DNA of 58,059 bases from a virus (IMGVR_UViG_3300033076_000920:1-58059), one strand, 5' to 3'; positions 10,574 through 57,746 are shown, counted from the first letter of the stretch. The notes: generated by a model not told the origin, from the sequence alone. Numbers and translations: made by a program.

Positions 10574-10575
10574 AC

Positions 10576-11339: not shown

Positions 11340-11362
11340 GCCGTCCCCCCAAGAAGCACGAA

Positions 11363-11394: not shown

Positions 11395-11407
11395 GTGCAA
11401 CGCGTGG

Positions 11408-11875: not shown

Positions 11876-11899
11876 GTGGTAATCACGTCACCACTTAGA

Positions 11900-12178: not shown

Positions 12179-12187
12179 GATGCCTCC

Positions 12188-34889: not shown

Positions 34890-34923
34890 GCGTGCCTCGT
34901 GGTGGTCATCGCGTCGTCAGCGG

Positions 34924-35349: not shown

Positions 35350-35369
35350 GGTCTAGTCCTCCTGTTGGC

Positions 35370-42826: not shown

Positions 42827-43207
42827 CTAGCTGTGGCGAGCAAGAGCATACGCTGTAGCTTGATCATGAGCAACCGCGTCGAGTGTAGGGCTCGACTCCA
42901 CGCTATCTACCACGCTCGCGAACGTCTGCGCCAGTCGAGCGTTGCGAGTGTAGGCATTCCGATTGACGCCATGAGCTCGGCCCATGCACACGCACCGGCA
43001 GATGTTGCACGCGGCTGCCTTGCAGCGCTTGCCGCATGCGTGAGGCGAAGCCACTGGCGACGCATACACCACGCGCAGCCACCGCAAACACCTCGAGCAC
43101 GTGCGCCCAAAGCCTGGGAGCGGCAGCTGCATGCCGTCGCATGGCGTGGCGTCGTCGAGCTCGGTCACCACGAGCTGGCACGCGTCGCAGTGACCGATGG
43201 CTCTCAC
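42827..43207 (-). CDS. Cys-rich zinc-finger protein
   Basis: CDAC, CSRC, CGKRC..A....CRC.C.G.AHG; GTGA overlap with the upstream gene. Confidence 0.55.
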   Translation of the reverse strand: MRAIGHCDACQLVVTELDDATPCDGMQLPLPGFGRTCSRCLRWLRVVYASPVASPHACGKRCKAAACNICRCVCMGRAHGVNRNAYTRNARLAQTFASVVDSVESSPTLDAVAHDQATAYALARHS

Positions 43208-43701
43208 AGATGCCGCCGCACGAACTCAAGCAAACGAGGCAACGTCTCCTCGCAGGATAGAGGCGTCGTCGAGTCTATGCTTGCTGCTAGGTAGAACATG
43301 CCTTTCCCGCCATCTTCTCGCAGCAGGATGTGGGGCGAGTGCGTGTCGCAGCAGAACACCGTGCCAGGTGTCCACGGGTCATCGTGCTGCATCGCCGCGC
43401 CAGTCAATCGCCAGCCATCGTTGCGCACCACGAGTTGGTGTGTGTACCGAGGATATTTCGGGTCGGTATGGAGCGCGGTGCCGTTGCGCACGCCAATCCA
43501 GTGAGGACCGTTGAGGTCATCGCACGGGCGCGACCACGTCTGCAGACGCTTCGATCTGCCAAATCCAAACGCTATCACCAGCATCGAATCCCATCGCTTT
43601 GTCTCCAGTGCCTTGGCTGGTAGCTCGTCAGTGTGCGAGCGCCACACGACTGGGTGCAAGAGCTGACCTGGCTTGAGTGGCGCGCCTGGCTTCACGTTCA
43701 T
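43204..43701 (-). CDS. Possible 2OG-Fe(II)/cupin-fold enzyme
   Basis: HTD (HxD) plus distal PG......T..PH; ATGA overlap at 43701. Confidence 0.45.
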   Translation of the reverse strand: MNVKPGAPLKPGQLLHPVVWRSHTDELPAKALETKRWDSMLVIAFGFGRSKRLQTWSRPCDDLNGPHWIGVRNGTALHTDPKYPRYTHQLVVRNDGWRLTGAAMQHDDPWTPGTVFCCDTHSPHILLREDGGKGMFYLAASIDSTTPLSCEETLPRLLEFVRRHL

Positions 43702-44330
43702 CCGTAGGTCCTGCGATAGCTCTCGGAGTATCGGTTTGGATTCATGTTGTGACCGTAAAGGCTTTTGACCTCGTCGTGTTGCACGATGGCAGGCCACGCG
43801 CGAAGGTAGCGCAGACCACGAGCCTTGAGCCACGCAGCTGTGCCTGGGTCTGTTGCGTATGGTCGCTCGTTTGATCGCGTAAACTCTAGCATGTATGCGT
43901 TGTGATCCTCGACGAGTTGCACCGGAAACGCGATGGCTTGCGCCATGAGAAACTTTGCGCCTGGAAGCATCTCCCAGTTGCCAGGCGCTGGCAGCTCCTC
44001 GCCTTGCTTGATGCGTCGCCCCGAGTAGAACGACACCATACCAACGCGCTTGTCGGAGTGCGCGGCGCGAATCATCGGCAGCGCATGCGTCTCGAAGTCA
44101 GGCGCAAGGATGGCGTCGTCCTCAAACTGCAGCACCCACAGCGGCGAATCGCATGCACCTCGGTATGCGATGGCGTCGGCGTAGCTCTCGGCCACGCTGC
44201 GCCCCGGTGCATGCGCCGACAGGCCAGCATGCGGCGCAAACCTACGCACGCGCTCGAGCAGTGCGCTCGCGTCTCGCTTGCTTGGCACGGTGCGGATTGA
44301 CACCGCGATGTTTCCCCATTCGATGCTCAT
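43698..44330 (-). CDS. GT-A fold glycosyltransferase-like protein
   Basis: LQFEDDAIL (EDD), VSFY, P.IVQH...S..GH as in GT25-like phage enzymes; ATGA overlap. Confidence 0.65.
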   Translation of the reverse strand: MSIEWGNIAVSIRTVPSKRDASALLERVRRFAPHAGLSAHAPGRSVAESYADAIAYRGACDSPLWVLQFEDDAILAPDFETHALPMIRAAHSDKRVGMVSFYSGRRIKQGEELPAPGNWEMLPGAKFLMAQAIAFPVQLVEDHNAYMLEFTRSNERPYATDPGTAAWLKARGLRYLRAWPAIVQHDEVKSLYGHNMNPNRYSESYRRTYG

Positions 44331-45394
44331 AGACGGTCCCACCAAACCTTTCGCAAGTCTTTCTCTGTTTTCTTGGTTCTGGGCAAGCTGCCCTCCCAGT
44401 CGTTGAGTAGCAGCTGCTTTACCTGGTGTTGATACACAGCCTCGTCGTCAGGCTGCGATGCAAAGCGCTTGCGGAAGCGGTCAATGACCGACGTGTCAGT
44501 GGTCGCAAGCAGGTGGTCTCGATACGCGCGCCACGTCGCGTGTCCAGGCGGCAGCTCCGAGGCATCGTACACGTAGCGCTCGTGGCTGTAGTGCGCCGCG
44601 CAGTGCACGCCGCCGAGCCTGCGCACCATGCGCTCGTAGGTGTCCGGCTCGAACTCCTGCAGTGCCGCGAGCGAGCGAAACGCCTGCTCGTGGATCAGGT
44701 TGCTTACGCGCATCGTGCGGAGGTTTACGCCGCTGCGCGCGATCATCTGATCGTAGATGTGGTTGTATTCCAGGTTGTTGTCCGCGATCATCTTCCAGAC
44801 GTCGGAGCCTTGGAAGTCCCAGATCGGGTAGAATCGAAAGCTGTTTGGCGCGCCCTTGCATCGAGTTGACCACTGATAATGCTGATACCCGTTGGCCTTG
44901 AGCATCGCGCGTTGGCGATTCATTGACTCGAAGGTGCGCAGGCCCACGAGATGGGCGGTGGGCACCTTGTCTTGTGTCTCGAACCACTCGAAGAAGTCGT
45001 AGAACCTGTCTGGGTATTCTCCTTCGATGGCGTGCGTCGCGAGCTTGTGTTTTGGGTGCACCCACAGGTCAGGCGTCGCAGGGTCCCACGCGTGCAGGTA
45101 GAGCTCGCGGTGGCTTGTCGCGTTGGTCATGCGGATGGGCACCTGATACCAACGCGGGATCACGAGCGGATGCGACATGACGCTTTCGACCATGCGAATC
45201 GTCTCGGCGTACTCGGCCTCCTGGTCGAGAAAGAACACCTCGATCTTGCGGTTCGTGCGCTCTGCTTCCCAGAGCGCCAGCCAGAACAGGCACGTCGAGT
45301 CTTTGCCGCCGCTGTAGCTAACAACGATGCGCTCAAACTCGCGGAACACGAAGCGCATTCGGTTGCGCGCGCAGTCAAACACGCTTCTAACCAT
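44327..45394 (-). CDS. IbrA/YbdN-like PAPS-reductase-family (PP-loop) protein
   Basis: SYSGGKDS, FLDQEAEY, GLR..ES.NR, YPIWDF...DVW, YN.IYD, MRVS, EPDTY. Confidence 0.88.
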   Translation of the reverse strand: MVRSVFDCARNRMRFVFREFERIVVSYSGGKDSTCLFWLALWEAERTNRKIEVFFLDQEAEYAETIRMVESVMSHPLVIPRWYQVPIRMTNATSHRELYLHAWDPATPDLWVHPKHKLATHAIEGEYPDRFYDFFEWFETQDKVPTAHLVGLRTFESMNRQRAMLKANGYQHYQWSTRCKGAPNSFRFYPIWDFQGSDVWKMIADNNLEYNHIYDQMIARSGVNLRTMRVSNLIHEQAFRSLAALQEFEPDTYERMVRRLGGVHCAAHYSHERYVYDASELPPGHATWRAYRDHLLATTDTSVIDRFRKRFASQPDDEAVYQHQVKQLLLNDWEGSLPRTKKTEKDLRKVWWDRL

Positions 45395-46166
45395 GGAACG
45401 CCTCCGCGATGTTGTTGGTCAGGTCTACCATCATCCGTGCCTGGCTCGTGAGCCAGCGGTCGACGCCTAGGTCGGTGACAATGAGCTTGTGTCGCGGCGA
45501 TGCAAACACGTCTGGCAACGTGCGCTCGGGGCACGCACGCTGCGCAAACGTGGCGAGGCGTTTGATGATGGCGTTTGGCGTGCGCTCATCGGCAAACGCG
45601 GCCTCTTTCTCTTGCTGATATGCGTCGTGTGTCGACGCGCTCATCGGCAGCACCTCGACTTCGTGTTGCTCTACCCGGTAGCCATCTCGCCACACCAGCA
45701 CGCCTGCGCCGAAGCGCTTGAGCCGCGTCATGTTGCACGTCTGCTCCTCGAGCTTGCCGTCGAGGTAGAATCGCCAATCCGTCTCGACGCGGTAGCTGGT
45801 GTGGTACTTCTCGTGCGGCTCGCCGAACGGAGCTTCGACGGCGCCAAAGTGAAACCACATGCGCCACGGCTCGCCGATAAACGCGTGCGTGTCGACGCTC
45901 AGCCGCTGCGGCCCAGTCCATGGGTCGGTAAGAAACTGGCCGTACTTCATGCGGCTGCCAGGCCGGATGATGCGCGAGACCAGGTTGAGCAGCACCACGA
46001 CGTCGCACCCGTCGTAGTACTTGCGAGGATTGGCGACGAAGTCGTCGGCGAGCACGCGCCGCTCGACTGCTGGCGAATCGCTCTTGTGGTGCACCCACAG
46101 CGCCGACTTGTCGGTCGGCCAGCCCGAGCGCATCGGGTCACTCGTCAAGCAGATTCGGTGGCTCAT
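45387..46166 (-). CDS. Hypothetical protein between the IbrB-like and IbrA-like genes (start uncertain)
   Basis: Overlaps both neighbours; no intact catalytic motif recognised. Confidence 0.65.
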   Translation of the reverse strand: MSHRICLTSDPMRSGWPTDKSALWVHHKSDSPAVERRVLADDFVANPRKYYDGCDVVVLLNLVSRIIRPGSRMKYGQFLTDPWTGPQRLSVDTHAFIGEPWRMWFHFGAVEAPFGEPHEKYHTSYRVETDWRFYLDGKLEEQTCNMTRLKRFGAGVLVWRDGYRVEQHEVEVLPMSASTHDAYQQEKEAAFADERTPNAIIKRLATFAQRACPERTLPDVFASPRHKLIVTDLGVDRWLTSQARMMVDLTNNIAEAFHG

Positions 46167-46767
46167 CGTCCCTCCCGTAGCTGCTGTTGTACTCGACGCC
46201 AGCGATCATCCTTGCCGCTCCCACGATCTGCTTGAGCCTAAGCATCTCCTCGACGCTCATGCCGAGGCGTCGCGCGATGGCATCGTCGCTCATGCCAAGC
46301 TTGCTCATGGCCACCACGAGCGCGCCTTGTAGGTCGACCTGGTGCTTTCCGCGCGCGCGGTTGTGCCGCACCGTGGACGCCATCAGGTCCCCGCGTGGGG
46401 CCTCAATGATGCTGCAGGGGATCCACGTGCGCATGAGGCGCGTGGAGGCCACGAGACGGCGGTGGAAGCCGTCCACGACCGTGTAGCGGTGCGCATCGCC
46501 TGACACGACCACGGGCATGGTAATTCCATCGGCGGTCATGCTCTGCTCGAGCAGCGCGAGCTCGGGCGATGCCACTCGGTTAGGGTTGTAGTCGTTGGCG
46601 TGCAGCGCGCTGACGTGCACCAGCTGCGGGCGTGTCGCCGGGTCGGCGGGCAGGTCGTGCAAGAGCGCCTTGGCAGCCTCGCGCACGATCTCGTTGAAAA
46701 GCGCAACACGCCCAGCCTGCGAGAGGCTAGACGCGTCGGCCAGAAGGTCTTGAAGCTGCTTCATCAT
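46138..46767 (-). CDS. IbrB/YbdM-like ParB/Srx-domain protein with C-terminal HTH
   Basis: ANDYNPN.VA.PE..LL..S...DG.T.P.V, VVDGFHR, STVRHNRARGKH, IA..LGM..EE..RL. Confidence 0.9.
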   Translation of the reverse strand: MMKQLQDLLADASSLSQAGRVALFNEIVREAAKALLHDLPADPATRPQLVHVSALHANDYNPNRVASPELALLEQSMTADGITMPVVVSGDAHRYTVVDGFHRRLVASTRLMRTWIPCSIIEAPRGDLMASTVRHNRARGKHQVDLQGALVVAMSKLGMSDDAIARRLGMSVEEMLRLKQIVGAARMIAGVEYNSSYGRDDEPPNLLDE

Positions 46768-47021
46768 CCGCCTCGTCGCAGGAAGAGTCGGTCATCCTCC
46801 GTCATGAGCTTTTTCGCTTCGGCCCTGAGGGCCTTGGAGTCGAGCCGGGGCCAGGGCATGTGTTTTTCCCATGCTTCAAGCTCGATGCGGTTGGCGACCT
46901 CGTTGATCGCCAGTGCGATAGAACGCTTGCTGTGCATCCTCATGGCCGCATCTCGCTCGGCTTCCCCCCATCGGCTGCATTCTGCATCGACCAGAATCTG
47001 AATGGCTTGTTCGCGTGTCAT
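46764..47021 (-). CDS. Small hypothetical protein, first gene of the ibrAB-like operon
   Basis: ATGA overlap with the ibrB-like gene; ATG 6 nt after a -10 box. Confidence 0.6.
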   Translation of the reverse strand: MTREQAIQILVDAECSRWGEAERDAAMRMHSKRSIALAINEVANRIELEAWEKHMPWPRLDSKALRAEAKKLMTEDDRLFLRRGG

Positions 47022-47027
47022 GCCCAG

Positions 47028-47056
47028 ACACTAGCGCTAGACCTCTCGCGCGTCAA
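47028..47056 (-). promoter_or_regulatory. Sigma70-like promoter, probably leaderless, for the ibrAB-like operon
   Basis: TTGACG (47056-47051), 17 nt, TAGTGT (47033-47028). Confidence 0.65.
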
Positions 47057-47073
47057 GCGTCGCATTCGCTTTT

Positions 47074-47877
47074 TTAGCTGACGGTGTCCAAGGCTGGCAT
47101 GAAGTCGCGCCACAGGCGGTGCAGGCTGGGGTAGTAGTGCCGCAGCCATGCGGCATGGGTACGGCTACGCCCGCACACCCACCAGCTCTTGCGCACGGTC
47201 CACGGCGCGTCTCGGTGTATGTACCCGATGCAGCGGTAGAGGGGCAGCAGGGGCACCTCGCGCGAGTGCACGTATGCCAGCACGTCGAGGCCCGACCACC
47301 ACGCTAGAGGGTGGGCATGCACCCTGCCCGACTTGAGCCTTGCGACTGGGCCAGCGGTAGAGAGGCGCATCATGCGGGCGTCGTTTTCCTGCGCTCGCAG
47401 CCCCATCATGACGCACCCGTAGGCTGCACTGGCTCGGTCGACGAGGTCGTAGAACACCACACGCGACAGGCCAGCGGAGCGCGAGTGTAGGTCCTGGTCG
47501 ACCTCGCGCATGTGCTCGCGCAGATAGTCGAGCGCCGAGACATCGGGCCGCAGCACCTCGAGCTGTGCGCCCCATCGCGCGGCGAGCTCGCGCACGAACG
47601 CCTCTTCGCCTGGGTAGTCTAGGTCGTCTTTCTGCGAGATGAGCGGCACGTGCTGCAGCCCGAGCTCGTGCGTCACGAGATGAGCGAGGCACGTGGAGTC
47701 CTTGCCTGCTGACCACATGACGCACGCGCGCGGCTCTAGCTCTAGCGCCTCGAGCACGTAGCGCTTGGCTTGCGTGACGCGACGCTGGAAGCCTGGCGAG
47801 CGCGCATGCACGTCGCACACGCGCCGCCAGTAGTCCCACGCCTCATGGTCCTCGCGACGTAGGACCGGCTCTGTCAC
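47074..47877 (-). CDS. Type IV-B-associated CysH-like PAPS-reductase-family protein
   Basis: WSAGKDS PP-loop, MGLRAQE..R, PLA.W...DV.AY; lacks the C-terminal ECGLH; coupled to csf3. Confidence 0.85.
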   Translation of the reverse strand: MTEPVLRREDHEAWDYWRRVCDVHARSPGFQRRVTQAKRYVLEALELEPRACVMWSAGKDSTCLAHLVTHELGLQHVPLISQKDDLDYPGEEAFVRELAARWGAQLEVLRPDVSALDYLREHMREVDQDLHSRSAGLSRVVFYDLVDRASAAYGCVMMGLRAQENDARMMRLSTAGPVARLKSGRVHAHPLAWWSGLDVLAYVHSREVPLLPLYRCIGYIHRDAPWTVRKSWWVCGRSRTHAAWLRHYYPSLHRLWRDFMPALDTVS

Positions 47878-48548
47878 TGGCGGATGGCCTCTGCAGGCAC
47901 GGCGATCGGCACCTCAAGCCATCGGGTCCAGTAGGGGTAGGTGAGCGTGCCCTGGCTGAGCTGCGCCTGGTCCGAGAGGCCAGGATAGTCGGCTGGCAGG
48001 TTGCGCATCGGCATGCCATCTCGCAGCACTGGAAAGCCAGGCCACAGCTCGTCGTCGCGCATCTCACGCACGGCCCACGCGATGACTCGCCCGCATCCGG
48101 TCGCGCGCTTTTTGCCAACGTATGAGATGAGCTGCAGCAACCGCCACACCTCGTCTCGGTCGCCGACGCACCACCAGGTCATGCGGTCACCTGCAGCGTG
48201 AAACGTGCGCAGCGGCAGCCGGTACGAGCGCGCCGCGCCGGCGTCGATGCGATACGACCGAAACCGTTGCTCTCCCAGTGCTTGCGCCTCTTGCTGTGGA
48301 AAGCGTCGGTTGATCCATCGTTGCTCTGACTCTTCGACCTCGCAGTGTCCGACGCTGGCGAGGTGAAAGCGCCGCGAGTCATGCCATGCGACTGGGATAT
48401 CGACATGCTTGAGCTCGGTTTCGAGCGGGGCGTTGTAGATGCCCTGCTCCATGGCGACGGCTGCGGCGAGCAGCCCATCAAGGGCAAGCGGTCCGTTGGG
48501 TAGTGCCACGGCGCCTCGGAGCGTGGCGACGACCTCGAGCGGCGTCAC
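47874..48548 (-). CDS. csf3: Type IV CRISPR-associated Cas5-group RAMP
   Basis: L.LDGLLA.A, IP+, W.CVGD..EV..LL, G-loop VGKKRATGCGRV..W, R.LP, PYW. Confidence 0.85.
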   Translation of the reverse strand: MTPLEVVATLRGAVALPNGPLALDGLLAAAVAMEQGIYNAPLETELKHVDIPVAWHDSRRFHLASVGHCEVEESEQRWINRRFPQQEAQALGEQRFRSYRIDAGAARSYRLPLRTFHAAGDRMTWWCVGDRDEVWRLLQLISYVGKKRATGCGRVIAWAVREMRDDELWPGFPVLRDGMPMRNLPADYPGLSDQAQLSQGTLTYPYWTRWLEVPIAVPAEAIRQ

Positions 48549-49567
48549 GCTTCCACCTGCCCGAGGAAGCTTCGGATCTCGGTCTTGCGCTCCGCGACGT
48601 GCGCGCGAAAGAGCTCGCCCACGCGCGGCGCTAGCTCAGCTGGTGCGATGGGCAACAGCGCGTCCGCTGGTCTCGCCAGCTCGATGTCCCACGCCTTGAC
48701 CGGTCGCACCTCGCCGTGGCCTGTGCCGCGCTTGCCACCGACGCGAGCGCGAGACAGGAAGCCCACCGCGGCCAGCCGGAACGTGTCGAGCGCGAGCGCG
48801 CTGTACACCGTAGCCTGGCATCCCCAGTAGAAAAGCGACCCTTGCGCGATGCGCTCGTATCGGCGCGGCATCATGGCGCTCTTGCTCTTGCCTCGCGCGA
48901 CGGCGTCGTCGCTCTCGCTAGCTGCTTCGCTGTCTGCGAGCTTGCCCAGCATCTTGACTTGGTCCTCGCCGCTCGTGAGCTCACGCAGCGATGGCCGTAG
49001 CATCGGGTCCATGCGCACGCGCTGCACCTCCTCGACGTGCTCGCGCGCGGTGGCGATATGCGCACCGGTCTCGCGCACGTACGCCATGACGTGCTCTGGC
49101 ACGAAGCGCGCCGTCTCGTCGCAGATAACAGTGGCATCGTCCACCTCGAGCATGCCTGGAATCATGCGGTTCTGTGCGCATCCGCCGAATAGCTCGAGCG
49201 CTGGCACGAGCTCGCAGAGCTTGCGGTACTCGTCGAGGCGCACGACGGCTCCATCCGATCCGCGGCCCTTGATCATGCCGCCCGCAAAGAGCAGACGCAA
49301 CGCGGCCTCGTTCAGCGTGTTGCGCTCGAGCAGCCCTGCGGCGTCGAGAAACATGTACGCCGCAGCCTCGCGCATGCCGTGGCGCATCGTGTCGGCGGTC
49401 ACGATGGGCACGAGCGAGAAGCGGCCATCGGCGCGACGCACCTTGCGGCGCATGATGACGGCCTCGTTTCCGATGGACTCGGCGTGGTGCGCGATGGGCT
49501 GTGCAGCCTCGAGCACGAAGTCGTAGCGATGGCGTTGCATGCTGGTCTTGCTGGTATTGTCAGACAT
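48545..49567 (-). CDS. csf2: Type IV CRISPR-associated Cas7-group backbone RAMP
   Basis: PI.H, VP.V.A..MRH.MR, LF.GG, P.L.LFGG....IPG.L.V, E.IA.GS, G-loop GGKRGTGHG.V. Confidence 0.88.
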   Translation of the reverse strand: MSDNTSKTSMQRHRYDFVLEAAQPIAHHAESIGNEAVIMRRKVRRADGRFSLVPIVTADTMRHGMREAAAYMFLDAAGLLERNTLNEAALRLLFAGGMIKGRGSDGAVVRLDEYRKLCELVPALELFGGCAQNRMIPGMLEVDDATVICDETARFVPEHVMAYVRETGAHIATAREHVEEVQRVRMDPMLRPSLRELTSGEDQVKMLGKLADSEAASESDDAVARGKSKSAMMPRRYERIAQGSLFYWGCQATVYSALALDTFRLAAVGFLSRARVGGKRGTGHGEVRPVKAWDIELARPADALLPIAPAELAPRVGELFRAHVAERKTEIRSFLGQVEA

Positions 49568-49958
49568 CGTCGATCTCCCCTTCGTGTGCCCTGCGTTCCT
49601 CTGCGCGCGTCTCGGTAATGAGTCGCGCCATGGCCATGAGTAGCCCTGTCTCTCGCTCGACGAGGTCGAGCACTTCGCGGTCGCCGTGGTCGCGTGCGAC
49701 CTTCGACAGATCCCACAGCGTTTGCGCGCCGAGCTTGTCGAGCGTCGTGGGCAGCTGCAGCCCGCGCAGCACAGCCGTGGTCCACTCGTCGACCGTGCCG
49801 CAGCGTCGAGCTGCGCTCAAGATGCGCCCTTGTAGCTGCTCCCAGTGCTTGAGCACCACGGCGGCGCCGTAGGTGCGCAGGTATCTTCGGCGTGCCGCGA
49901 GGATGAACTCAACCAGAGCGGTGCGCGCCTTGTCTGCGTGTTGTTCGCTTAGACTCAC
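49560..49958 (-). CDS. Type IV-B small subunit (Cas11-like)
   Basis: 132-aa all-helical protein (W..L..RI.SAA) between csf1 and csf2, the IV-B Cas11 position. Confidence 0.7.
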   Translation of the reverse strand: MSLSEQHADKARTALVEFILAARRRYLRTYGAAVVLKHWEQLQGRILSAARRCGTVDEWTTAVLRGLQLPTTLDKLGAQTLWDLSKVARDHGDREVLDLVERETGLLMAMARLITETRAEERRAHEGEIDDV

Positions 49959-50832
49959 TGCGTTTCCCCTTCTCTTTGATCATGCGCGCGGCGACGGTCT
50001 CCTCGTCGCGTTGCGCGAGCCACAGACAGAGCGCAAACCACGCAAGCGATCTCGCGTAGCTCCAGTCGCGCTCGAAGTGTTCGATGCGCTCACGGCATCG
50101 CTGGTATGCGTGCGAGGTGTACGCGCCGCGCTGAAGCTCCTCTTTGGTGGCGCCCGCCGTCAGGAGCTCGGTCATGTCTCCGACCAAGCTCCAAAGCCGA
50201 GACGACGCCGGTGGGATGAATACCTCGGACTCCTCGAAGCGCACGCGCCCGCTGCCTCGGCGCATGTTGATTGGCGTGTACGGCAGCACGTGCTTTTGGC
50301 CCGTGTCGGAGATAGCGGCGAACCATGTGCACGGCTCGAGCGGGCTCGACGTTGCCATGCGGCGCAAGAAGGCCAGGATCTTGGGCTTCTCTCCCTTGGT
50401 GGCGTTGTCGAGCGTATGCCCGTCGTAAAGGTGGGTGAAGTTACTCCACCTGCCTGCGCTTTCCTTGCGGCATGTACCGTCGCACTTGGCGCATGGCTGC
50501 CCAGGCTCGCGGTGCCCTCGGTTGCCTTTGCGAGCCTGCGCTTGCGATGGCTCGACGCCGGTGCCGTTGCATCGATCGCACGGCTTTGGCTCTCGGCCCA
50601 CGACTGGCGAAAACCGAGCGCGCACGTACACGCATGCCTCGCATACGTGGTCCGAGTGCGGCGAGCAAAACGACGTCTGGTCAGTCAGTGATGAGCCGAT
50701 GAACTCCCACACGGGCTTGCCGCGCGTACTGTGCCCACCGCACATCGCGCACGGCTCGACATCGTGCGTGGAGCAGCCTTCGACGGCAGGCCAACCAACG
50801 TAGGCGTGCGAGATCTGCGAGGCCGACTTCAT
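49909..50832 (-). CDS. csf1: Type IV CRISPR-associated large subunit (Cas8-like)
   Basis: CAMCG, TD, VCEAC zinc motifs; I...GQKHV...P.N; start MKSAS overlaps the upstream stop (ATGA). Confidence 0.8.
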   Translation of the reverse strand: MKSASQISHAYVGWPAVEGCSTHDVEPCAMCGGHSTRGKPVWEFIGSSLTDQTSFCSPHSDHVCEACVYVRARFSPVVGREPKPCDRCNGTGVEPSQAQARKGNRGHREPGQPCAKCDGTCRKESAGRWSNFTHLYDGHTLDNATKGEKPKILAFLRRMATSSPLEPCTWFAAISDTGQKHVLPYTPINMRRGSGRVRFEESEVFIPPASSRLWSLVGDMTELLTAGATKEELQRGAYTSHAYQRCRERIEHFERDWSYARSLAWFALCLWLAQRDEETVAARMIKEKGKRSESKRTTRRQGAHRSG

Positions 50833-51110
50833 CGCTTGACCATCCGCGCTGATTGGTAGGGCAGCATCTGCCGCATGCGCCATTCTCGCAGCGCGTTGGT
50901 GTGGGCGCGCACTTCGTTGTGCGCCAGGTCGAGGAACACCGGCAGCGGATCGCGCTTGCGAAGCGCCAGCTGCCTCGCGTTCTGCGGGGTGATATCGCCG
51001 AGCTGAGCCGCGATGTGCTTCCACGACGAGACCCAGCCGTGCTCAAGCGCGCCCTCGAGCTGTGCGACGCGATTCTCTAGGTCCTCGAGACGCGAGAGCG
51101 CATCTTTCAT
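50829..51110 (-). CDS. Small excisionase/AlpA-like HTH protein
   Basis: WKHIA..LG...........PLPV.......A....L.EW. Confidence 0.6.
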   Translation of the reverse strand: MKDALSRLEDLENRVAQLEGALEHGWVSSWKHIAAQLGDITPQNARQLALRKRDPLPVFLDLAHNEVRAHTNALREWRMRQMLPYQSARMVKR

Positions 51111-51319
51111 GGCTTGGCGGCTCGGTAACGCCGGATGTGCACCACCTTGTAGGTGATGGTCTTGGGCGATTCTTGGCGTAGCGCGCGAGCTCGGAAGAGT
51201 GCGGCGCCTCGCGAGCCGAACTGCGTGGTCGGCGTGATAGCGGTCTTGTCGCCGATGGGCCCGCGGCGCTCGCCGTTCACGTAGTAGATCACCTGCCAGT
51301 ACTCGAAGATGAGGTGCAT
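51107..51319 (-). CDS. Small hypothetical protein
   Basis: Starts just after the ssb stop; ATGA overlap downstream. Confidence 0.5.
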   Translation of the reverse strand: MHLIFEYWQVIYYVNGERRGPIGDKTAITPTTQFGSRGAALFRARALRQESPKTITYKVVHIRRYRAAKP

Positions 51320-51320
51320 C

Positions 51321-51773
51321 TTAGAACGGGAGTTCATCGACGCCTCCCTCGGGCGAGTAGTCCGCGACCTGCGGCTGTGCTCGTCGAGCTCCACCGCCGT
51401 GGCTACCGTTGCCGCGTGCTCCCTGCTCGCTCTCTGGCCCTCGGCCTGCGAGGTAGACCTGGCTAGCGTGCACCTCGGTCTTGTAGCGCTTCTCGCCGGT
51501 TTTCTTGTCGTCGTAGCTCGTGGTGCGCAGCGCGCCCTCGACGATAACGGTGGAGCCCTTGCGCAGGATGCGTGCGAGCCCTTCGGCGCGCTTGCCCCAC
51601 ACCACGACGCGCACCCATTCGGTGCGTTGCTGGCGCTCCTTGTTTGCGTCGAGGTAGCTCTCATTGATGGCGAGCGACAGCGTCATCACGCTCGCGCCGC
51701 CTTGCGTGCTGCGCAGCTCGGGGTCTTGCCCGAGGTTGCCCATCACGATGACCTTGTTCATTCCCTCAGCCAT
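51321..51773 (-). CDS. ssb: Single-stranded DNA-binding protein
   Basis: NKVIVMGNLGQDPELR, TEWVRVVVWGK.AE, KG..V.VEG.L.T, C-terminal DELPF. Confidence 0.97.
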   Translation of the reverse strand: MAEGMNKVIVMGNLGQDPELRSTQGGASVMTLSLAINESYLDANKERQQRTEWVRVVVWGKRAEGLARILRKGSTVIVEGALRTTSYDDKKTGEKRYKTEVHASQVYLAGRGPESEQGARGNGSHGGGARRAQPQVADYSPEGGVDELPF

Positions 51774-52272
51774 GTCGTGTCCCTTTCCATGCTTCACTTG
51801 CGGCCATGAAGGCCTCGATTGTTTGCGTGATGATGTTGGCGAGCGCCGGGTGCTGCGAGCTGCAGGACAGGGCGAGCCAAGCTTTGATGCTCAGCTTGGG
51901 CGCCTTGGCCTTGCGCTGGTCTGCTTCGTACGCCTCGCGTGTGGCTGGCATGTGCGCGGCCAGGTTGGCTAGCTGGCCCAAGTGAGCCACGGTTTGCGGT
52001 GGTGCGTTGGCGCCTCCGTAGACATGCCAGAGCGCGCTAGCGTGCTCGGTCGTGAGAGCGTCAAGCCGCTTGCGGATGGCTCGGTGCCGTGCTGTCGCGC
52101 GCATGTGCGCGTCCGTCATGCGCTGGTCGGGCTTGGCAGCGCTGCCACCGAACGCGCCCTGAGCGGCTGACACCATCGGGCCCCAGCTGCTGGCGATGCC
52201 CATCTCGCTCGCGGATTGCTGCCAGTACCAGGTGAGGTCGTCGTTAGCGATGGGCCGCGGCTTCGGTCGCAT
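51766..52272 (-). CDS. Hypothetical protein, possible late transcription regulator
   Basis: Start MRPKP; L.WY and I...L..L.......L...Y resemble phage Q/sigma-like activators (weak). Confidence 0.45.
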   Translation of the reverse strand: MRPKPRPIANDDLTWYWQQSASEMGIASSWGPMVSAAQGAFGGSAAKPDQRMTDAHMRATARHRAIRKRLDALTTEHASALWHVYGGANAPPQTVAHLGQLANLAAHMPATREAYEADQRKAKAPKLSIKAWLALSCSSQHPALANIITQTIEAFMAASEAWKGTRHG

Positions 52273-52274
52273 GG

Positions 52275-52598
52275 CTAGTTGACGCCTCCGCTTTGCTTGC
52301 TTGCTCGCAGCGCCGCTAGCTTCTCGCCATACATGCGAAGCACCTTGAGGATGGCGTCGGCTGCGACGTCGCCCGTGTCGCGAGAGGCGGCGAGGAGCAG
52401 CATGGCGAGGTCGCCCGCGGTGTCGCCCGCGAGCACGAACGTGCCGCGGAGCTCTCCCGTTGCGCTGTAGAGTCGGATGGCGACTTGCCTCGTAGTGGAG
52501 GCGTCGCCGACGATGACATCCGCGGTCGACACCGCGAGTTCTATCGCTGCGATGCGACCCTCCTCGTCGAGGATGTGCAGCGACAGACGAGGAGTCAC
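52275..52598 (-). CDS. Hypothetical protein
   Basis: Tightly packed in the operon. Confidence 0.55.
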   Translation of the reverse strand: MTPRLSLHILDEEGRIAAIELAVSTADVIVGDASTTRQVAIRLYSATGELRGTFVLAGDTAGDLAMLLLAASRDTGDVAADAILKVLRMYGEKLAALRASKQSGGVN

Positions 52599-52801
52599 AA
52601 CGTCTCGCGCACGTGCTCAGCGCGGAGCCATGAGCCGCGGTCGTTGAGCAGTCGATCTCGATTCTCGTAGGCACGCATCTCGCCGCTACGGAGCAGCGCG
52701 ATCGGTCCCTCGGGTGTCGAGCCTGCGATGTCTACGACCTCCCAAGCAAACCCAGGCATCGCGCGGAGCCAAAACGTATCGCCCACTTGCACATCGTTCA
52801 T
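52595..52801 (-). CDS. Small SH3-like hypothetical protein
   Basis: DVQVGD.F; AAGGGA upstream. Confidence 0.55.
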   Translation of the reverse strand: MNDVQVGDTFWLRAMPGFAWEVVDIAGSTPEGPIALLRSGEMRAYENRDRLLNDRGSWLRAEHVRETL

Positions 52802-52819
52802 GGTTGGTCCCTTTCGTTG

Positions 52820-53038
52820 TCAGTCTGCTACCACAAGACGCTGCCATTCGGGCAGTTGGTCCTCGTCGATGATGGCCACGAGGTTCCCGGCCTCGGCCAC
52901 GTACTGTCTGCCCTGCTCGCGCTCGCGGATCTCGGTGATAGAGAACACGAGCGCGGTGTAGTGCCGTGGTGCTGGTGGCTCCCACGTCTTGCGCCGGATG
53001 AGGTCGCCCAGCTCGAGCAGTCTCGCCGCATCAATCAT
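52820..53038 (-). CDS. Small hypothetical protein
   Basis: ATGA overlap with the upstream gene. Confidence 0.55.
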   Translation of the reverse strand: MIDAARLLELGDLIRRKTWEPPAPRHYTALVFSITEIREREQGRQYVAEAGNLVAIIDEDQLPEWQRLVVAD

Positions 53039-53754
53039 GGCTTCGCGCCCTCTACCACTGCGCCCTCCAGTCTTGCGAGCGCAGAGCGCACGTCGCGCAG
53101 TGCCTCGGTTCGCTCATCGTGCGGCCACTCGTCGAGCGCGGCAAGCGCCTCGAGCAGCACGTGCCGGTGCACCCTGCGACGGCTCATGTCGTCGGTCTTG
53201 CCCCATGCGTCGGCGACCTCGGGCGGCAGGCCTGGCGGCGCGGCGTGCGTGACCTCGACCTTCTGCGCGGCGTTGGCGCCCACGAGCGGGGCCCATGCGC
53301 CCGTGACCACTGCGATGGCTTTGGCCTTGGCCGTAGGTGCCTCGTCGCTGTCGCGCACCTCCTGCACGCTCTCCTCAAGCGCGGTGGCCAGGCGGTCTCG
53401 CACGTAGCTCGGGTCTTGCGCTCGCACGCGACGCCATGCCTCTGCGGCCAGGCTTTCCATGGCATGGTCGGTGAGACCCCAGCGCGCGCCGAGCTCTACG
53501 CCGGTGCGACCACGCACCCACGAGTGAGGCATCATGGCCATGATGGCGCGCACGCGATCCTCGCGCGTCGGCGGGCATTCGTCGGTCACCTGCGTGTTGC
53601 CGTTGGGGCTCGTGGGCCCGATCGGCGCGTCGAACATGGCGGCGATGTGCTCCGGCTCGACCTCGGCAGCCGCGCGCGCGCGCGACCCTACAGCGGGCGT
53701 CGAAGATTTCTTCCCACCTATTTTCCTCTGTTCTTTCGAGTGTTTAGATGCCAC
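53035..53754 (-). CDS. Possible terminase small subunit
   Basis: HTH-like segment, helical oligomerisation region and G..A..KVEVT tail as in many TerS proteins. Confidence 0.4.
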   Translation of the reverse strand: MASKHSKEQRKIGGKKSSTPAVGSRARAAAEVEPEHIAAMFDAPIGPTSPNGNTQVTDECPPTREDRVRAIMAMMPHSWVRGRTGVELGARWGLTDHAMESLAAEAWRRVRAQDPSYVRDRLATALEESVQEVRDSDEAPTAKAKAIAVVTGAWAPLVGANAAQKVEVTHAAPPGLPPEVADAWGKTDDMSRRRVHRHVLLEALAALDEWPHDERTEALRDVRSALARLEGAVVEGAKP

Positions 53755-53859
53755 TAGTTGATGTCCCTTCTAGCTGGTCAATCACTTACCATCTTGACAC
53801 GATGCCCGAAACGGGGCGAGGCTACGCGCGCGGTCTCTGGTGGCGCTGTCTCCCACCTC

Positions 53860-55239
53860 TCAGTGCTGGTCGTCGAGATTGTCGAAGCGCGTGGAGTGCC
53901 CGGTCCAGCGCAGTGGCACCTTGCCGGTGCTCCCTGCACGGTGCTTAGCGACGATGACCTCGGCCATGTGGGTCTTGGGCTTTTCGTCGCCGGTCGAGTA
54001 GTAGTCCTCGCGATAGATGAAGATCACGTTGTCGGCGTCCTGCTCGATAGCGCCGGATTCGCGGAGGTCGGAGAGGAGCGGGCGCTTGTCGGCTCGGGAC
54101 TCGACGGAGCGCGAGAGCTGGGAGAGGGCGAGCACGGCGACCTGAAACTCTTTGGCGATGGCCTTGAGGTCGCGGGAGATGGAGGAGATCTCCTGCTCGC
54201 GCGAGTCGCCGCGGCCTGTGACGAGCTGCAGGTAGTCGACTACGACAAGGCCGAGCTCGCGGCCTGCGGTGATGGCGTCGCGCTGCTGGCGTCGGACGCG
54301 GCTGCGGATCTCGGCGGTGGTGATGGTGCCGCGGTCGTCGATCCACAGGCGCAGCTTGGACATGTCCGAGGCGCTGGCGGCTAGCGACTGGTAGTCATGG
54401 CTGGCGCATCGCCCTACCTGCACGAGCTGGCTGTTGACGCTCGCGTCGGTGCAGTTGATGCGCAGGGCGATCTGGTCGGCTGGCATCTCGAGCGAGAACA
54501 CGAGCGTGTCGAGGCCAGCGCGGGCGCAGGCGAGGGCGTGCTGCATGGCCAGGGAGGTCTTGCCCATGCCTGGGCGAGCGGCGAGCACGGTGAGGGTGGA
54601 GGGGGCGTAGCCGCCGCTGAGCACGGTGTCGAGGTCGGTGTGGCCGGTGGCGACGCGGTTGGTGGCGCAACGGTTGTTGCGCGCGGCCTCGATCTCGCTC
54701 CAGGCGGCGTGAAGGTGAGCGGCTAGGCTGTCGTCGGTGAGCTCGGTGTTGTTGTCGGCGATCTGCGCGACGCGCTGCGCCGCGTTGGACATCCACTCGG
54801 GCACGTTGGGCACGTCGCCGTAGCCCTCCGCCACAAGGCGCTGGCACTCGAGCACAAGTAGGCGTCGGCTGTGGAGGTCGCGCACGATGCGCGCATGGTC
54901 CTCGGCGTGAGCCACTGCGGGCGTGGCGTCAAGGATCTGGATGAGGTACGCGGCGCCTCCGACCTCGTGCAGCTGGTCTTTTGCTTGCAGCCGTGAGGCA
55001 ACGGCGATGCTGTCGATGCGCTGGCGGGCCTGGTCGATCTCGAGCAGCGACTCGTAGATGCGCTGATTTGCCCACGAGAAAAACATCTCGGGCTTGGGCA
55101 GGATATGCAAGACGCTGTCAAGCCGCGCCGGATCGAGGATGATGGCCGAGAGCACCGCCGCCTCGGCGTCGAGGTCGCTCGGTGGCATGCGCCCAGCGAT
55201 GCGCAGGATCGTGGCTGGCTTCTGCTCACGAGGCTTCAC
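53860..55239 (-). CDS. dnaB: Replicative DNA helicase
   Basis: PP...AE.AVL, AARPGMGKT, FSLEM, VVDYLQL, LSQLSR..E.R..KRP.LSDLRESG.IEQDAD, KHR.G. Confidence 0.97.
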   Translation of the reverse strand: MKPREQKPATILRIAGRMPPSDLDAEAAVLSAIILDPARLDSVLHILPKPEMFFSWANQRIYESLLEIDQARQRIDSIAVASRLQAKDQLHEVGGAAYLIQILDATPAVAHAEDHARIVRDLHSRRLLVLECQRLVAEGYGDVPNVPEWMSNAAQRVAQIADNNTELTDDSLAAHLHAAWSEIEAARNNRCATNRVATGHTDLDTVLSGGYAPSTLTVLAARPGMGKTSLAMQHALACARAGLDTLVFSLEMPADQIALRINCTDASVNSQLVQVGRCASHDYQSLAASASDMSKLRLWIDDRGTITTAEIRSRVRRQQRDAITAGRELGLVVVDYLQLVTGRGDSREQEISSISRDLKAIAKEFQVAVLALSQLSRSVESRADKRPLLSDLRESGAIEQDADNVIFIYREDYYSTGDEKPKTHMAEVIVAKHRAGSTGKVPLRWTGHSTRFDNLDDQH

Positions 55240-56404
55240 TGGCTACCGCCTTGGCCGTTGCTGGGCCGCTAAGGGGGCGTGGCGAGGCTTTGTCGCCGCT
55301 CTGGGATGGCAGGGGCCACGGCATGCCCTCGGCCCATCCTGCGGCCACCATGGCGGGGAGAGGCCAAGGCTGTAGAGGGGTCCATCCGCAGGCTCGGCGA
55401 AACCGAAACATCTCCTCGGTCCGCTGGCGCTCCTCCTCCGTGAGCGTGTCGGGCACGATGCCCACGGTCTTGGTCGTGATGGGCCGCGGCTCTGCAGCTG
55501 CGAGGCCAGGCCTGCCAGTGCGAGCGGGTAGGCTCTGGGCCATGTCGGCCTCGCTGGCGCGCTGGGCAAAAGCGAGGATCGACTTGTTCGTGGTGGCGGC
55601 GTTGTACGAGCTCGCAGCCGCTAGGTCGAGCGCGCGGCGCACGGCGGCGATGACGTGCGCGGGCTTCTTGGCGTCGGCGTGGAATGCCAGCCGCTGCGCT
55701 AGCTCCTGGACGTTGGTGCCCGTGAGGCCCTGGTAGTACCGGTCGGCCTCGAGCAGCCTTCGGAGCTCTGCCTCGAGGTCGCCCGCGGCCGCCTGCCCGC
55801 CCGCCTTCTGCGCTGGTTGCGGCTCTGGCTTGGGCTCTGGCGGAGGAGCCTCGCGCGCCTGCGCACGTGCGTGCGCACGCGAAGAGGCGACGGGCGGTCG
55901 GGGTGGAGAATTTTCTTTCAGAGGGGAGAAATCGGGACGGGTCGGGTCGGGCCGGGCCGGGGAAGGCGAAGTGCGCTCGAAATTCGCCCGCGCTTCGGGG
56001 TGTGCTTCGGGGTGAACTTCGGGTGGTACTTCGGCAGAATTTCGCCCGAAATTCGACCCCTGTTCTGAATGATTCTCGACACTTGCGTTCTTCGGTCGCT
56101 TCATCCGTTCTCGCGCTCGCTCGCGCTCGGCCAGCACCTGCTTCCTCGTCGGATTGTAGTCGAGAAAATCATGGATCTCGATCGTTCCGTCTGGTTTTTT
56201 GTCGAGCAGTTGCTCTCGGATCAGCAGCTCGAGCACCCTCTTCTTGGGTCGCAGGAAGCGCATGGCCCGGTCGTCGAGCAGGCCATCGGTCAAGTGTGCG
56301 CTTGCGTAGAGGATGGCTCGAATCCAGAACGCGAACGCATCATCGGGAAGCCCCCACAGCTTCGGATGGGTCAAGGCCGAGTCGCAGAGCTTGGCCCATG
56401 CCAT
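55226..56404 (-). CDS. Phage replication initiator (lambda O-like role)
   Basis: MAW.K..D....HPK, TDG, IHD.L.YNP, R.R..RERM, PDPTRPD linker; directly upstream of dnaB. Confidence 0.78.
   Translation of the reverse strand: MAWAKLCDSALTHPKLWGLPDDAFAFWIRAILYASAHLTDGLLDDRAMRFLRPKKRVLELLIREQLLDKKPDGTIEIHDFLDYNPTRKQVLAERERARERMKRPKNASVENHSEQGSNFGRNSAEVPPEVHPEAHPEARANFERTSPSPARPDPTRPDFSPLKENSPPRPPVASSRAHARAQAREAPPPEPKPEPQPAQKAGGQAAAGDLEAELRRLLEADRYYQGLTGTNVQELAQRLAFHADAKKPAHVIAAVRRALDLAAASSYNAATTNKSILAFAQRASEADMAQSLPARTGRPGLAAAEPRPITTKTVGIVPDTLTEEERQRTEEMFRFRRACGWTPLQPWPLPAMVAAGWAEGMPWPLPSQSGDKASPRPLSGPATAKAVASEAS
55977..56055. repeat. Iteron-like 12-bp-period repeats inside the initiator gene (candidate origin)
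   Basis: GCTTCGGGGTGT/GCTTCGGGGTGA/ACTTCGGGTGGT/ACTTCGGCAGAA flanked by CGAAATTCG copies. Confidence 0.65.
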
Positions 56405-56405
56405 G

Positions 56406-56687
56406 TCACACCTCGCATCGGTAGTGAGCCGTCTCATCGTCGGGCCTGTTGGACTTGCCCCTGGTGACAGGAAGCGTTGCCAAGATGTGCTCTCGGTTCG
56501 TTTCCCACCGCGTGGCCACAAGCAGCGTGTGAGCTGGCGTGCTCATGCCAGCAAGCACCGTCATCAGGCCATGACGCGACACGCCTACAGCGTCCGCCAC
56601 CGGCTTGATTCCGCTTCGCCTGATGGCCTGGCGGATCTCGTCTGCCAAAGGTTCCGACAACTGATCTCTCTTGATGTGGTGCCGCAT
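56406..56687 (-). CDS. Cro-like HTH protein
   Basis: IR.AI...G...VA.AVGVSR..L..VLAG; ATG 7 nt after a -10 box. Confidence 0.65.
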   Translation of the reverse strand: MRHHIKRDQLSEPLADEIRQAIRRSGIKPVADAVGVSRHGLMTVLAGMSTPAHTLLVATRWETNREHILATLPVTRGKSNRPDDETAHYRCEV

Positions 56688-56694
56688 GCGTGAC

Positions 56695-56756
56695 CACCTA
56701 GCATATTCGGCACGCTCTGTCAACAGTCGCGCTAGCGCGCCGTCAACTGTCAACAG
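56695..56756 (-). promoter_or_regulatory. Probably leaderless promoter with two operator-like boxes
   Basis: TTGACA (56723-56718), 17 nt, TAGGTG; CTGTCAACAG at 56717 and 56747 flanking the palindrome GCGCTAGCGC. Confidence 0.65.
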
Positions 56757-56759
56757 TTT

Positions 56760-56909
56760 TCATGGAAGCAGGAACCACCACGCCAAGCCCCACGCGAACA
56801 CGAGCACGCCGCCGGCCAACGCCTCGGCTATCTCGGAGGCGCTAAGCGACGTGGGCTGTACGGGCTTGGCAGGCAGAGCAGAGCGGCGAACGTTGCGGCG
56901 GTTGTTCAT
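56760..56909 (-). CDS. Small membrane protein
   Basis: Start MNNRR; C-terminal TM segment; TACTGT 7 nt upstream of the ATG. Confidence 0.5.
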   Translation of the reverse strand: MNNRRNVRRSALPAKPVQPTSLSASEIAEALAGGVLVFAWGLAWWFLLP

Positions 56910-56947
56910 GCCGCCGACAGTACCTAGCCGCCCCACGCGAGGCCAAA

Positions 56948-57148
56948 TTACTCGCGGCGAATCCCGAACGTCGCGTTGAGATGCACGCGGATTTGACTCG
57001 TGGTGTAGTGCCGCACGATGCCGCCGTCGCAGAGCACGACGCACCAGACATCATTCTCCCACATGCCCGACGACTCGACGTACAGCGCGTAGCCCTCGCG
57101 CGTGCCCTCGACCACGACCGGCAACGGGCGGCGAAACTCGTGGATCAC
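56948..57148 (-). CDS. Small hypothetical phage protein
   Basis: P.PV......G.A...........W.V.L...G..........IR...N.T.G; GTGA overlap. Confidence 0.6.
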   Translation of the reverse strand: MIHEFRRPLPVVVEGTREGYALYVESSGMWENDVWCVVLCDGGIVRHYTTSQIRVHLNATFGIRRE

Positions 57149-57351
57149 AAGAGCGACCGCATGCGCTCAAGCTTCGCACGCTCGGCACGAGTTCGCCGCT
57201 GCGCCTCCTCGAGCTCCAGTCGCGCCTCGTGCTCGTCGGCTTCGGCCTGCCGCACGCGCCACTCCTGGTCGCCGCGCTCGGTGCCAACCAAGGCAAGGAC
57301 AAGCCAGGCCACGGCCACGAGCAGCGCAACGCCGATGACCACCCAGCTCAT
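57145..57351 (-). CDS. Small TM plus coiled-coil protein
   Basis: Hydrophobic N-terminus; overlaps both neighbours. Confidence 0.55.
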   Translation of the reverse strand: MSWVVIGVALLVAVAWLVLALVGTERGDQEWRVRQAEADEHEARLELEEAQRRTRAERAKLERMRSLL

Positions 57352-57746
57352 CGCAACGCCCTGAGCCGCTCAAACGCTCGCAGGTCGTCGGGGTAGCGCT
57401 CATCGATGCGCTCGTGCGCAAGAAACGCCGTGGTGTGCCGCCCGCTTGCGATGATGTGCACAAAGCCCGTAGCCATCGCAGCGCCTAGCTCGACCCATGC
57501 GCCGCGGCTGGGTAGCTCTGGCACCAAGAACCACAGCACGTCGCACTTGCGAGCCGCCGCGAGGCATCGTGCCGCGATGTCGGCTTGGCGCTCCCACGGC
57601 AGCTCGAGCTCGTGCTTTTCCGCTACGTCCATCTCGCGCACCCAGTCGAGCGCGATGCACATGCCTGGCGTGCTCGCCACGAGCTGGATGGCAGCTCGAG
57701 CGCGGTCACGCTCTGCGCTAGCTGCGGCTGTGTACACGGTGAGCAT
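57348..57746 (-). CDS. Nucleoside 2-deoxyribosyltransferase / NMP glycosidase-like protein
   Basis: VY.A, CDVL, SRGAWVELG.A.A NDT-fold motif; GGAGG RBS. Confidence 0.72.
   Translation of the reverse strand: MLTVYTAAASAERDRARAAIQLVASTPGMCIALDWVREMDVAEKHELELPWERQADIAARCLAAARKCDVLWFLVPELPSRGAWVELGAAMATGFVHIIASGRHTTAFLAHERIDERYPDDLRAFERLRALR

Follow-up and report, generated by a model that had tools for sequence, protein, structure and literature searches.

A probable subtype IV-B Cas module, without an array, directly behind ssb in the genome of a freshwater tailed phage

Introduction

Subtype IV-B of the CRISPR-Cas systems is defined, in passages of five published accounts, by the genes csf1, cas11, csf2 and csf3 together with a cysH-like gene, and by the lack of an array, of cas6 and of DinG (PMC8175902; PMC7038947; PMC7937560; PMC11656645; PMC12669027). 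Here, a locus of this kind is described from the IMG/VR virus record IMGVR_UViG_3300033076_000920, a stretch of 58,059 bp that is referred to as a whole as the window. Its five genes, csf1-cas11-csf2-csf3-cysH-like, lie directly behind ssb and probably constitute a canonical, functional subtype IV-B module in a whole phage genome of ~57.8 kb. In an earlier note on this DNA, class 1 effectors and the question of their RNA source were correctly seen, but subtype IV-B was not recognized, and the absence of an array, cas6 and DinG is the defining norm of that subtype. The array-less state is therefore not an anomaly, and the window adds a phage-borne example of a known subtype.

A IV-B complex from a megaplasmid of Mycobacterium sp. 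JS623 has been solved (PDB 7JHY), and its operon, as outlined in an extract of PMC7937560, contains the same gene set and no array, cas6 or DinG. According to passages of three papers, this complex holds heterogeneous RNA of ~55-60 nt, with few CRISPR RNAs (crRNAs) among it (PMC8175902; PMC7038947; PMC7937560). The JS623 system is plasmid-borne in an actinobacterium, whereas that of the window is found in a tailed phage behind ssb, is very divergent in sequence and has an extra zinc-finger-like insertion in Csf1. Part of PMC7038947 places IV-B mostly on plasmids and sometimes in prophages, while parts of PMC10848311 and PMC11656645 report type IV systems from plasmids, prophages and several lytic phages, and IV-B from an archaeal virus. 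The archaeal 'Fuxiviridae' viruses encode a IV-B system in which csf1, csf2 and csf3 are present and csf3 has a CysH-like gene as its neighbour; according to an excerpt of PMC10848311, it carries a mini-array with two repeats and a single spacer, whereas the window has none. Type IV-A, known from P. oleovorans (PDB 8RC3/8RFJ), has the Csf1/2/3 core in common with the window and gave the best structural matches for the Csf2 and Csf3 models. In contrast to the window, it has DinG, Cas6/Csf5, an array and crRNA-guided repression, and it has no cysH-like gene.

Three sources of RNA had been proposed for the module in the earlier note, namely host crRNAs (in a sponge or anti-CRISPR role), a non-array RNA, or non-specific binding. 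All three are already in print for IV-B, in passages of PMC8175902, PMC7038947 and PMC7937560, and they are undecidable from sequence. The accounts cited at the outset also put forward crRNAs loaded from other systems, a sponge for RNA or crRNA by which the mobile element is protected, and a function connected with the CysH-like enzyme. As late as 2026, type IV-B is described in a paper as being of unclear function, and no functional study was found in the literature on 'CasCysH', or in that on 'type IV-B' from 2022 on.

Composition and conservation of the module

The identity of the class 1 Cas effectors was borne out by PADLOC profiles, by sequence matches in the PDB and by fold matches. Csf2 matches the Csf2 of the JS623 complex best among PDB sequences (7jhy, 2e-8), in an alignment that covers residues 12-157 only, and also matches a IV-C Cas7; Csf3 matches the Csf3 chain 8rc3_F (5.6e-9). 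AlphaFold2 models built on alignments of relatives reached a predicted local distance difference test score (pLDDT) of 78 and a predicted template modelling score (pTM) of 0.74 for Csf2, and 83 and 0.79 respectively for Csf3. In Foldseek, the Csf2 model was matched to the type IV-A Cas7 8rc3_B (E 1.5e-14, template modelling (TM) score 0.58) and to the IV-B chain 7jhy_a (1.6e-9), and the Csf3 model to 8rc3_F (E 2.4e-14, TM 0.73). Type III Csm3/Csm4-like chains took lower ranks for both. Since both folds match type IV Cas7 and Cas5, the possibility raised in the earlier note that the two candidates might not be RAMP folds falls away.

Csf1 contains a zinc finger of the CxxC...CxxC type, whose cysteines C28, C31, C64 and C67 are invariant in 13 sequences. 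In the alignment it also has a lineage-specific insertion of ~37 residues with two further CxxC motifs, followed by glycine-rich turns. The motifs of this insertion read PCDRCNGTG ... PCAKCDGTC (window 50400-50590, minus strand; Csf1 residues ~81-145), and are presumably reminiscent of DnaJ-type zinc fingers. The protein ends ~25 residues past a conserved WLAQRDEE helix and has no long C-terminal tail. The place of cas11 between csf1 and csf2 is kept in 34 of 36 viral loci.

The fifth protein is a member of the PAPS-reductase family. Its sequence alone gave no match among PDB sequences, and a profile of 17 relatives matches PAPS reductases there (6vpu_A, 4.2e-13). The PP-loop S-x-G-K-D-S is invariant in all 22 CysH-like relatives compared, as are G159, R161, E164, R168, P190 and W194 in 17 sequences. 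A C-terminal Cys-Gly (WWVCGRS) occurs in the lineage of the window only, the Cys being absent from all relatives outside it; this Cys presumably stands at the place of the catalytic Cys of true CysH. In passages of PMC8175902, the IV-B cysH-like gene is described as having an SGGxDS-like PP-loop without the catalytic cysteine of true CysH, and Cas-associated CysH is viewed as keeping nucleotide binding and ATP alpha-hydrolysis and not sulfonucleotide reduction. The residue pattern in the window appears to fit this view. With its PP-loop invariant and no catalytic Cys conserved, the enzyme may be an ATP alpha-hydrolase or an adenylyl-transferase rather than a sulfate-reducing enzyme, and its substrate would probably be something held by the ribonucleoprotein.

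Selection on the window genes was measured as dN/dS, the ratio of non-synonymous to synonymous substitution rates, against two relatives of 94-97% nucleotide identity (Table 1). The module is under purifying selection as strong as that on the core phage genes TerL, SSB and DnaB. All five cas reading frames are intact and translationally coupled.

Table 1. Features of the window; values in the fourth column are E-values unless stated otherwise, and two dN/dS values refer to the two relatives.
Feature	Position	Strand	Match or note	dN/dS
csf1, type IV large subunit (307 aa)	49909-50832	-	PADLOC typeIV_Cas8 8.8e-17; TIGR03114 1.9e-7	0.19, 0.18
cas11-like small subunit (132 aa, GTG start)	49560-49958	-	PADLOC typeIV_Cas11 4.1e-6; three weaker matches, among them 2.2e-5, 2.2e-4	0.03, 0.01
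csf2, type IV Cas7 backbone subunit (340 aa)	48545-49567	-	PADLOC typeIV_Cas7 5e-40; TIGR03115 4.5e-13	0.04, 0.05
csf3, type IV Cas5 subunit (224 aa)	47874-48548	-	PADLOC typeIV_Cas5 3e-37; TIGR03116 2.6e-12	0.04, 0.03
cysH-like, PAPS-reductase family, CasCysH type (267 aa)	47074-47877	-	PF01507 3.8e-11; PP-loop SAGKDS	0.09, 0.11
ssb, single-stranded DNA-binding protein (158 aa)	51321-51797	-	PF00436 8.9e-34; TIGR00621 4e-36; phrog_44 7.4e-46	0.04-0.08
Small ORF (76 aa)	51107-51337	-	ATG 51337 behind GGAGG; 17-nt overlap with ssb
ORF (93 aa)	50829-51110	-	ATGA overlaps on both sides
DnaB	53860-55239	-	PHROG	0.13-0.19
Replication initiator	55226-56521	-	PHROG
TerL (large terminase)			PHROG	0.02
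Iteron-like tandem repeats	55932-56055		inside replication initiator gene
Cassette of five genes	43698-47021	-	between cysH and packaging genes
Cas4-like nuclease domain ORF (628 aa)	2434-4320	+	PADLOC Cas4c 1.5e-9; PF12705 7.3e-13; PHROG exonuclease
Promoter/leader element, five copies	7805-7900, 8045-8125, 8680-8762, 10564-10659, 10849-10944	+	precede small plus-strand genes

Absence of an array and completeness of the genome

No repeat-spacer array was detected in the window by Tandem Repeats Finder (minimum score 30), by a repeat search with seeds of 10 and 12, or by a relaxed detector written for this work. These scans found only glycine-rich coding repeats at 27971-28177, iteron-like repeats and a terminal repeat. 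The relaxed detector recovers the six-repeat array of a related phage contig (L007), used as positive control, and 10 shuffled versions of the window yielded 0 candidates; a search at relaxed settings had been advised in the earlier note, and no degenerate array emerged from it. The same detector found no array in a 58.5-kb relative, or in a 78.9-kb relative that is complete by its direct terminal repeats (DTR-complete).

Six-frame family searches of the window likewise gave no cas1, cas2, csf4/DinG or cas6, with control genomes positive, and the subtype IV-A markers TIGR03117 (DinG/Csf4) and PF01881 (Cas6) had no match, again with positive controls. Among 79 open reading frames (ORFs), PADLOC found no further Cas protein save a Cas4-like domain in an unrelated 628-aa ORF. 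A hidden Markov model (HMM) of the cas6-like family of the clade relatives matched no frame of the window, and Rfam gave 0 matches there at the gathering threshold. The lack of an array, cas1/cas2, cas6 and DinG, as first read from the sequence, thus stood up to array scans and to six-frame, PADLOC and HMM searches, and it is this lack that makes the source of the RNA an open question, as the earlier note had concluded.

The phage is a freshwater tailed phage of the myovirus type, with large terminase, portal, tail sheath, baseplate and tape measure proteins found by PHROG profiles, which indicate a contractile tail. Its record is classed as linear in IMG/VR, with a CheckV completeness estimate of 78%. 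Despite this, the genome is effectively whole at ~57.8 kb, since bases 1-270 recur at 57790-58059 as an imperfect terminal direct repeat of 95% identity and a 58,478-bp relative reads across the end-to-start junction of the window. This relative, which has 89-96% identity along most of its sequence, is circularly permuted, and its own junction is covered in turn by the window. The apparent completeness claimed earlier was hence well founded.

The window sequence or near copies of it were found in contigs of runs from 13 studies, the sources of which, where given, are mostly freshwater, estuary and reservoir metagenomes. In a species-genome collection there were 13 matches, all of them contigs of metagenome-assembled genomes (MAGs) labelled with many unrelated phyla and none from an isolate; one is equal in length to an IMG/VR contig. 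They look like binned phage DNA, and because of their scattered phylum labels no host is assigned. The nearest cultured relatives of TerL are no more than 32% identical and come from varied hosts.

Relatives of the module and their variation

Of 8,000 candidates scored in a word-indexed protein search, 575 were Csf2 relatives at E <=1e-5, and the best 120 of these 575 are all at least 52% identical and almost all metagenomic. In IMG/VR, 36 phage loci encode a Csf2 relative (38-99% identical); csf1 was found in 35 of them, csf3 also in 35 and cas11 in 34, and the gene order is the same. A PAPS-reductase-family ORF is present in at least 30 of the loci when tblastn and clustering are combined. 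Only one locus, L007, has an array. In this 46,961-bp phage contig, a 665-aa Cas12u1/Cas12m-like gene (10592-13033; PADLOC 6.6e-45) lies directly downstream of the cysH-like gene and is followed by the array, which consists of six ~37-nt repeats and a truncated seventh, with a GTGATC...GATCAC hairpin and spacers of ~28-38 nt. By tblastn, no other of the 36 loci has a Cas12m-like gene.

Two additions recur among these relatives. A cas6-like gene stands beside the module in 21 of the 36 loci (e.g. L006:6100-6864, L025:5770-6810 and L024:9562-10611), and its carriers include the DTR-complete 78.9-kb genome, which has no array anywhere. The encoded proteins end in G-G-R-x-x-x-G-F-G-R, and six of the eight tested match PADLOC Cas6 profiles, weakly, at E <=1e-3. 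In 18 of 35 proteins, or 16 of 32 distinct tails (shuffle mean 0.007), Csf1 extends at its C-terminus into a long, disordered tail of low complexity that has QLxL[FW] at its end or close to it, examples being those of L025, L031-L035, L038 and L040. The consensus for binding to the bacterial sliding clamp is QL[S/D]LF, which the tail motif seems to resemble. Among six papers matched in the literature, no title or abstract opening deals with Csf1 and the sliding clamp; one of the six, PMC11551745, concerns type IV-A1. Since both the cas6-like gene and the Csf1 tail are absent from its lineage, the window represents a minimal form of IV-B.

Among 50,697 GenBank phage records, one matches Csf2, that of Skermania phage SPI1 (KR011061.1); a nucleotide search with the module against GenBank phages matched only ssb fragments, in two records. 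Orf40-44 of SPI1 (32609-36242; L059-L061) correspond to csf1-cas11-csf2-csf3-cysH-like in the same order, and all five are annotated as hypothetical. The complete SPI1 genome has no array, no match to the Cas6 HMM of the clade and no clamp motif on Csf1. SPI1 has been cultured, infects an actinobacterium, is siphovirus-like and encodes a DNA polymerase and a primase of its own; its Csf2 is 28% identical to that of the window over 81% of the query, and its module is located beside tail, lysis and nucleotide-metabolism genes, not beside ssb. No paper on this phage was found in the literature. The earlier note had called the window a clean test case. The genome is indeed whole and array-less, but the description is weakened by the DTR-complete 78.9-kb relative and by SPI1, which carry the same array-less module.

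Operon context

On the minus strand, the genes follow in the order ssb, 76-aa ORF, 93-aa ORF, csf1, cas11, csf2, csf3 and cysH-like, tightly packed and overlapping. Csf1 is joined to the 93-aa ORF by an ATGA, and the overlaps are 50 nt for cas11/csf1, 8 nt for csf2/cas11, and 4 nt each for csf3/csf2 and cysH-like/csf3. The alternative ATG of the 76-aa ORF at 51319 gives a 1-nt gap after ssb. Coordinates and junction sequences are thus in keeping with the succession by overlaps or a 1-nt gap reported at first reading, and the overlaps suggest that ssb to cysH-like may be co-transcribed. The only non-coding gap nearby is one of 52 nt, after the cysH-like gene and before the next ORF.

The gene for SSB is the upstream neighbour in the operon and lies outside the Cas module. 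Its presence was confirmed, while the end previously assigned to it, 51773, proved to be an internal ATG in the same frame. The 76-aa ORF had no family match in Pfam, NCBIfam, PADLOC or PHROG and no usable lead in the Atlas, and is conserved only in the window's own lineage (L003-L005). The 93-aa ORF, which stands upstream of csf1 only in that lineage, had been labelled excisionase-like with a helix-turn-helix (HTH). This label is unconfirmed, there being no match in Pfam (E <=0.01), NCBIfam, PADLOC, PHROG or the PDB. Its one lead is an Atlas cluster with HTH_17 in 26% of members (score 0.91), and it is possibly a candidate small HTH protein.

Several observations weigh against the module being a canonical, functional IV-B system tied to its operon. 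The matches of Csf1, Csf2 and Csf3 in NCBIfam are all below the curated cut-offs (49 against 130 bits for Csf2), which marks these proteins as divergent members. The Cas11 assignment draws on E-values of 4e-6 and weaker and on gene position, and against PDB sequences this protein gave only weak ferritin matches (best 4.6e-5), which probably reflect helical-bundle composition and not homology. Complex formation and RNA binding of the window's subunits are predictions from the solved homologue. Co-transcription is suggested by the gene overlaps only. Promoter and terminator scans of 43000-58059 gave counts in line with chance (1 against 1.4 and 10 against 7.8 respectively), and csf1 contains, at 50633-50618 on the coding strand, a hairpin that resembles a terminator. 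RNA data over 44000-56600 came from two metatranscriptomic runs and from two 'RNA-Seq' runs that are probably DNA; short contigs of the RNA libraries cover parts of cysH/csf3, of cas11, of the small ORF and ssb, and of DnaB, and they cannot prove transcription, as they give no strand, ends or level and DNA may be present; uncovered stretches, likewise, carry no meaning. The adjacency to ssb is confined to the window's own lineage, and ssb is 5-6 kb away in two other loci. Moreover, QLxL[FW] is absent from every frame of the window, and with a tail-less Csf1 the case for a replication-linked role is weak for this phage.

Possible RNA sources and roles

By analogy with the Mycobacterium IV-B complex, Csf2 would form a helical filament on RNA of fixed length, with Cas11 as a minor filament and with Csf3 and Csf1 as caps. 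The bound RNA would not derive from a CRISPR array, and in the lineage of the window no cut by Cas6 would be needed. Tentatively, such a complex could act while the phage DNA is being replicated, in a conflict that involves the host or rival mobile elements. This proposal is based on the placement of the module with replication genes, on the clamp-binding-like Csf1 tails of relatives and on the adjoining DNA-modification genes. A bolder and unlikely version would make phage IV-B a replication-coupled machine, in which a Csf filament on non-CRISPR RNA (transcripts, primers or R-loops) at replicating DNA positions a CysH-like adenylating enzyme. If this were true, the CysH-like enzyme would mark or process nucleic acid; most phage lineages would use the Csf1 tail to tether the complex to the host clamp, and in some of them Cas6 would shape the RNA. 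The lineage of the window would then have lost the tail and cas6 and gained the Csf1 zinc-finger insertion, with its module wired into an ssb/DnaB operon beside a swappable DNA-modification cassette.

It is somewhat unlikely that a dedicated non-array guide is involved instead, that is, that a specific phage or host transcript is loaded and directs the complex to one defined target, to which the CysH-like enzyme is brought. The cas6-like gene kept without an array in 21 of the 36 loci, that of the DTR-complete 78.9-kb genome included, is an argument for a continuing importance, in the clade, of RNA processing that is specific for sequence or structure, and Csf3/Cas5, the handle-binding subunit in other class 1 systems, has a dN/dS of 0.03-0.04. 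Dispersed in the window there is also a promoter and 5'-leader element whose 17-nt core is invariant, three of its copies being exact and one diverged (chance mean 0.44). This leader repeat, however, is most simply read as repeated promoters with ribosome-binding sites. The window lineage lacks cas6, Rfam gave no known RNA in the window, and there is no conserved non-coding element beside the operon, the 52-nt gap being the only one. The complete relative G3, too, has no dispersed hairpin repeat and only a terminal repeat with a third copy of it. Quite unlikely is a crRNA sponge or anti-CRISPR, in which mature crRNAs of the host, or other small guide RNAs, are sequestered by the Csf proteins and the CRISPR immunity of the host is thereby disabled during infection. 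Such a role would suit a module that has no RNA source of its own and that stands among genes expected to be expressed during replication, and the idea is, as said, a published one. Yet, in parts of PMC8175902 and PMC7937560, the Mycobacterium complex is reported to have taken up no co-expressed type I-E crRNAs, and an extract of PMC7038947 has the authors of the idea themselves judging a five-gene anti-CRISPR unlikely and finding IV-B negatively correlated with other CRISPR systems in hosts. A sponge also leaves no role for the near-invariant CysH-like enzyme, with its PP-loop kept in 22 of 22, and the 13 MAG matches, with their scattered labels, point to no particular host. That the module is an inert or decaying remnant of a once array-bearing system is scarcely credible. 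The want of an array, of a nuclease and of adaptation genes would agree with decay, as would the loss from the window Csf1 of the long tail of its relatives, but all five frames are intact and coupled, their dN/dS values, 0.01-0.19, are comparable with those of TerL, SSB and DnaB, and the cassette is kept across phages in which Csf2 is only 38-57% identical.

As a probable functional IV-B module, the window is one more phage-borne example of the subtype, and it leaves the question of the subtype's function unchanged. It is useful as a whole genome with a minimal five-gene module under strong selection, and for its natural variants, as close relatives differ at the borders of the module and distant ones add cas6 or a clamp-binding-like tail. 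SPI1, as a cultured carrier of an unannotated array-less module, makes the question testable at the bench.

Other features of the genome

A five-gene cassette, located between cysH and the packaging genes, encodes an 85-aa ORF, a ParB-like protein (phrog_2159, 1.5e-52), a 259-aa ORF, a second PAPS reductase of the DUF3440, IbrA-like kind (phrog_2302, 2.3e-84) and a glycosyltransferase-like ORF. In the close relatives L003-L005 this cassette is replaced by one with a ParB/PAPS-reductase pair that is 33-40% identical and an ORF whose DPPW motif hints at a methyltransferase.

The promoter/leader element has the layout TTGAC/TTGCG, ~17 nt, TAnnnT, an invariant GACACCCC..GGGAC core, ACAAC and a ribosome-binding site. 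No tRNA gene was found in the 58,059-bp window, and no polymerase, clamp or integrase family was matched by PHROG among the 70 ORFs scanned. The 628-aa ORF, with its Cas4-like PD-(D/E)xK nuclease domain, probably encodes an exonuclease of recombination that does not belong to the Cas module. On the minus strand, the replication block comprises the replication initiator, DnaB and SSB. Inside the initiator gene are tandem repeats with units of 5-15 nt, including CTTCGGGGTGTA x3.5, which are iteron-like, as at a replication origin, and in the relative L004 the corresponding site is occupied by 11-nt repeats.

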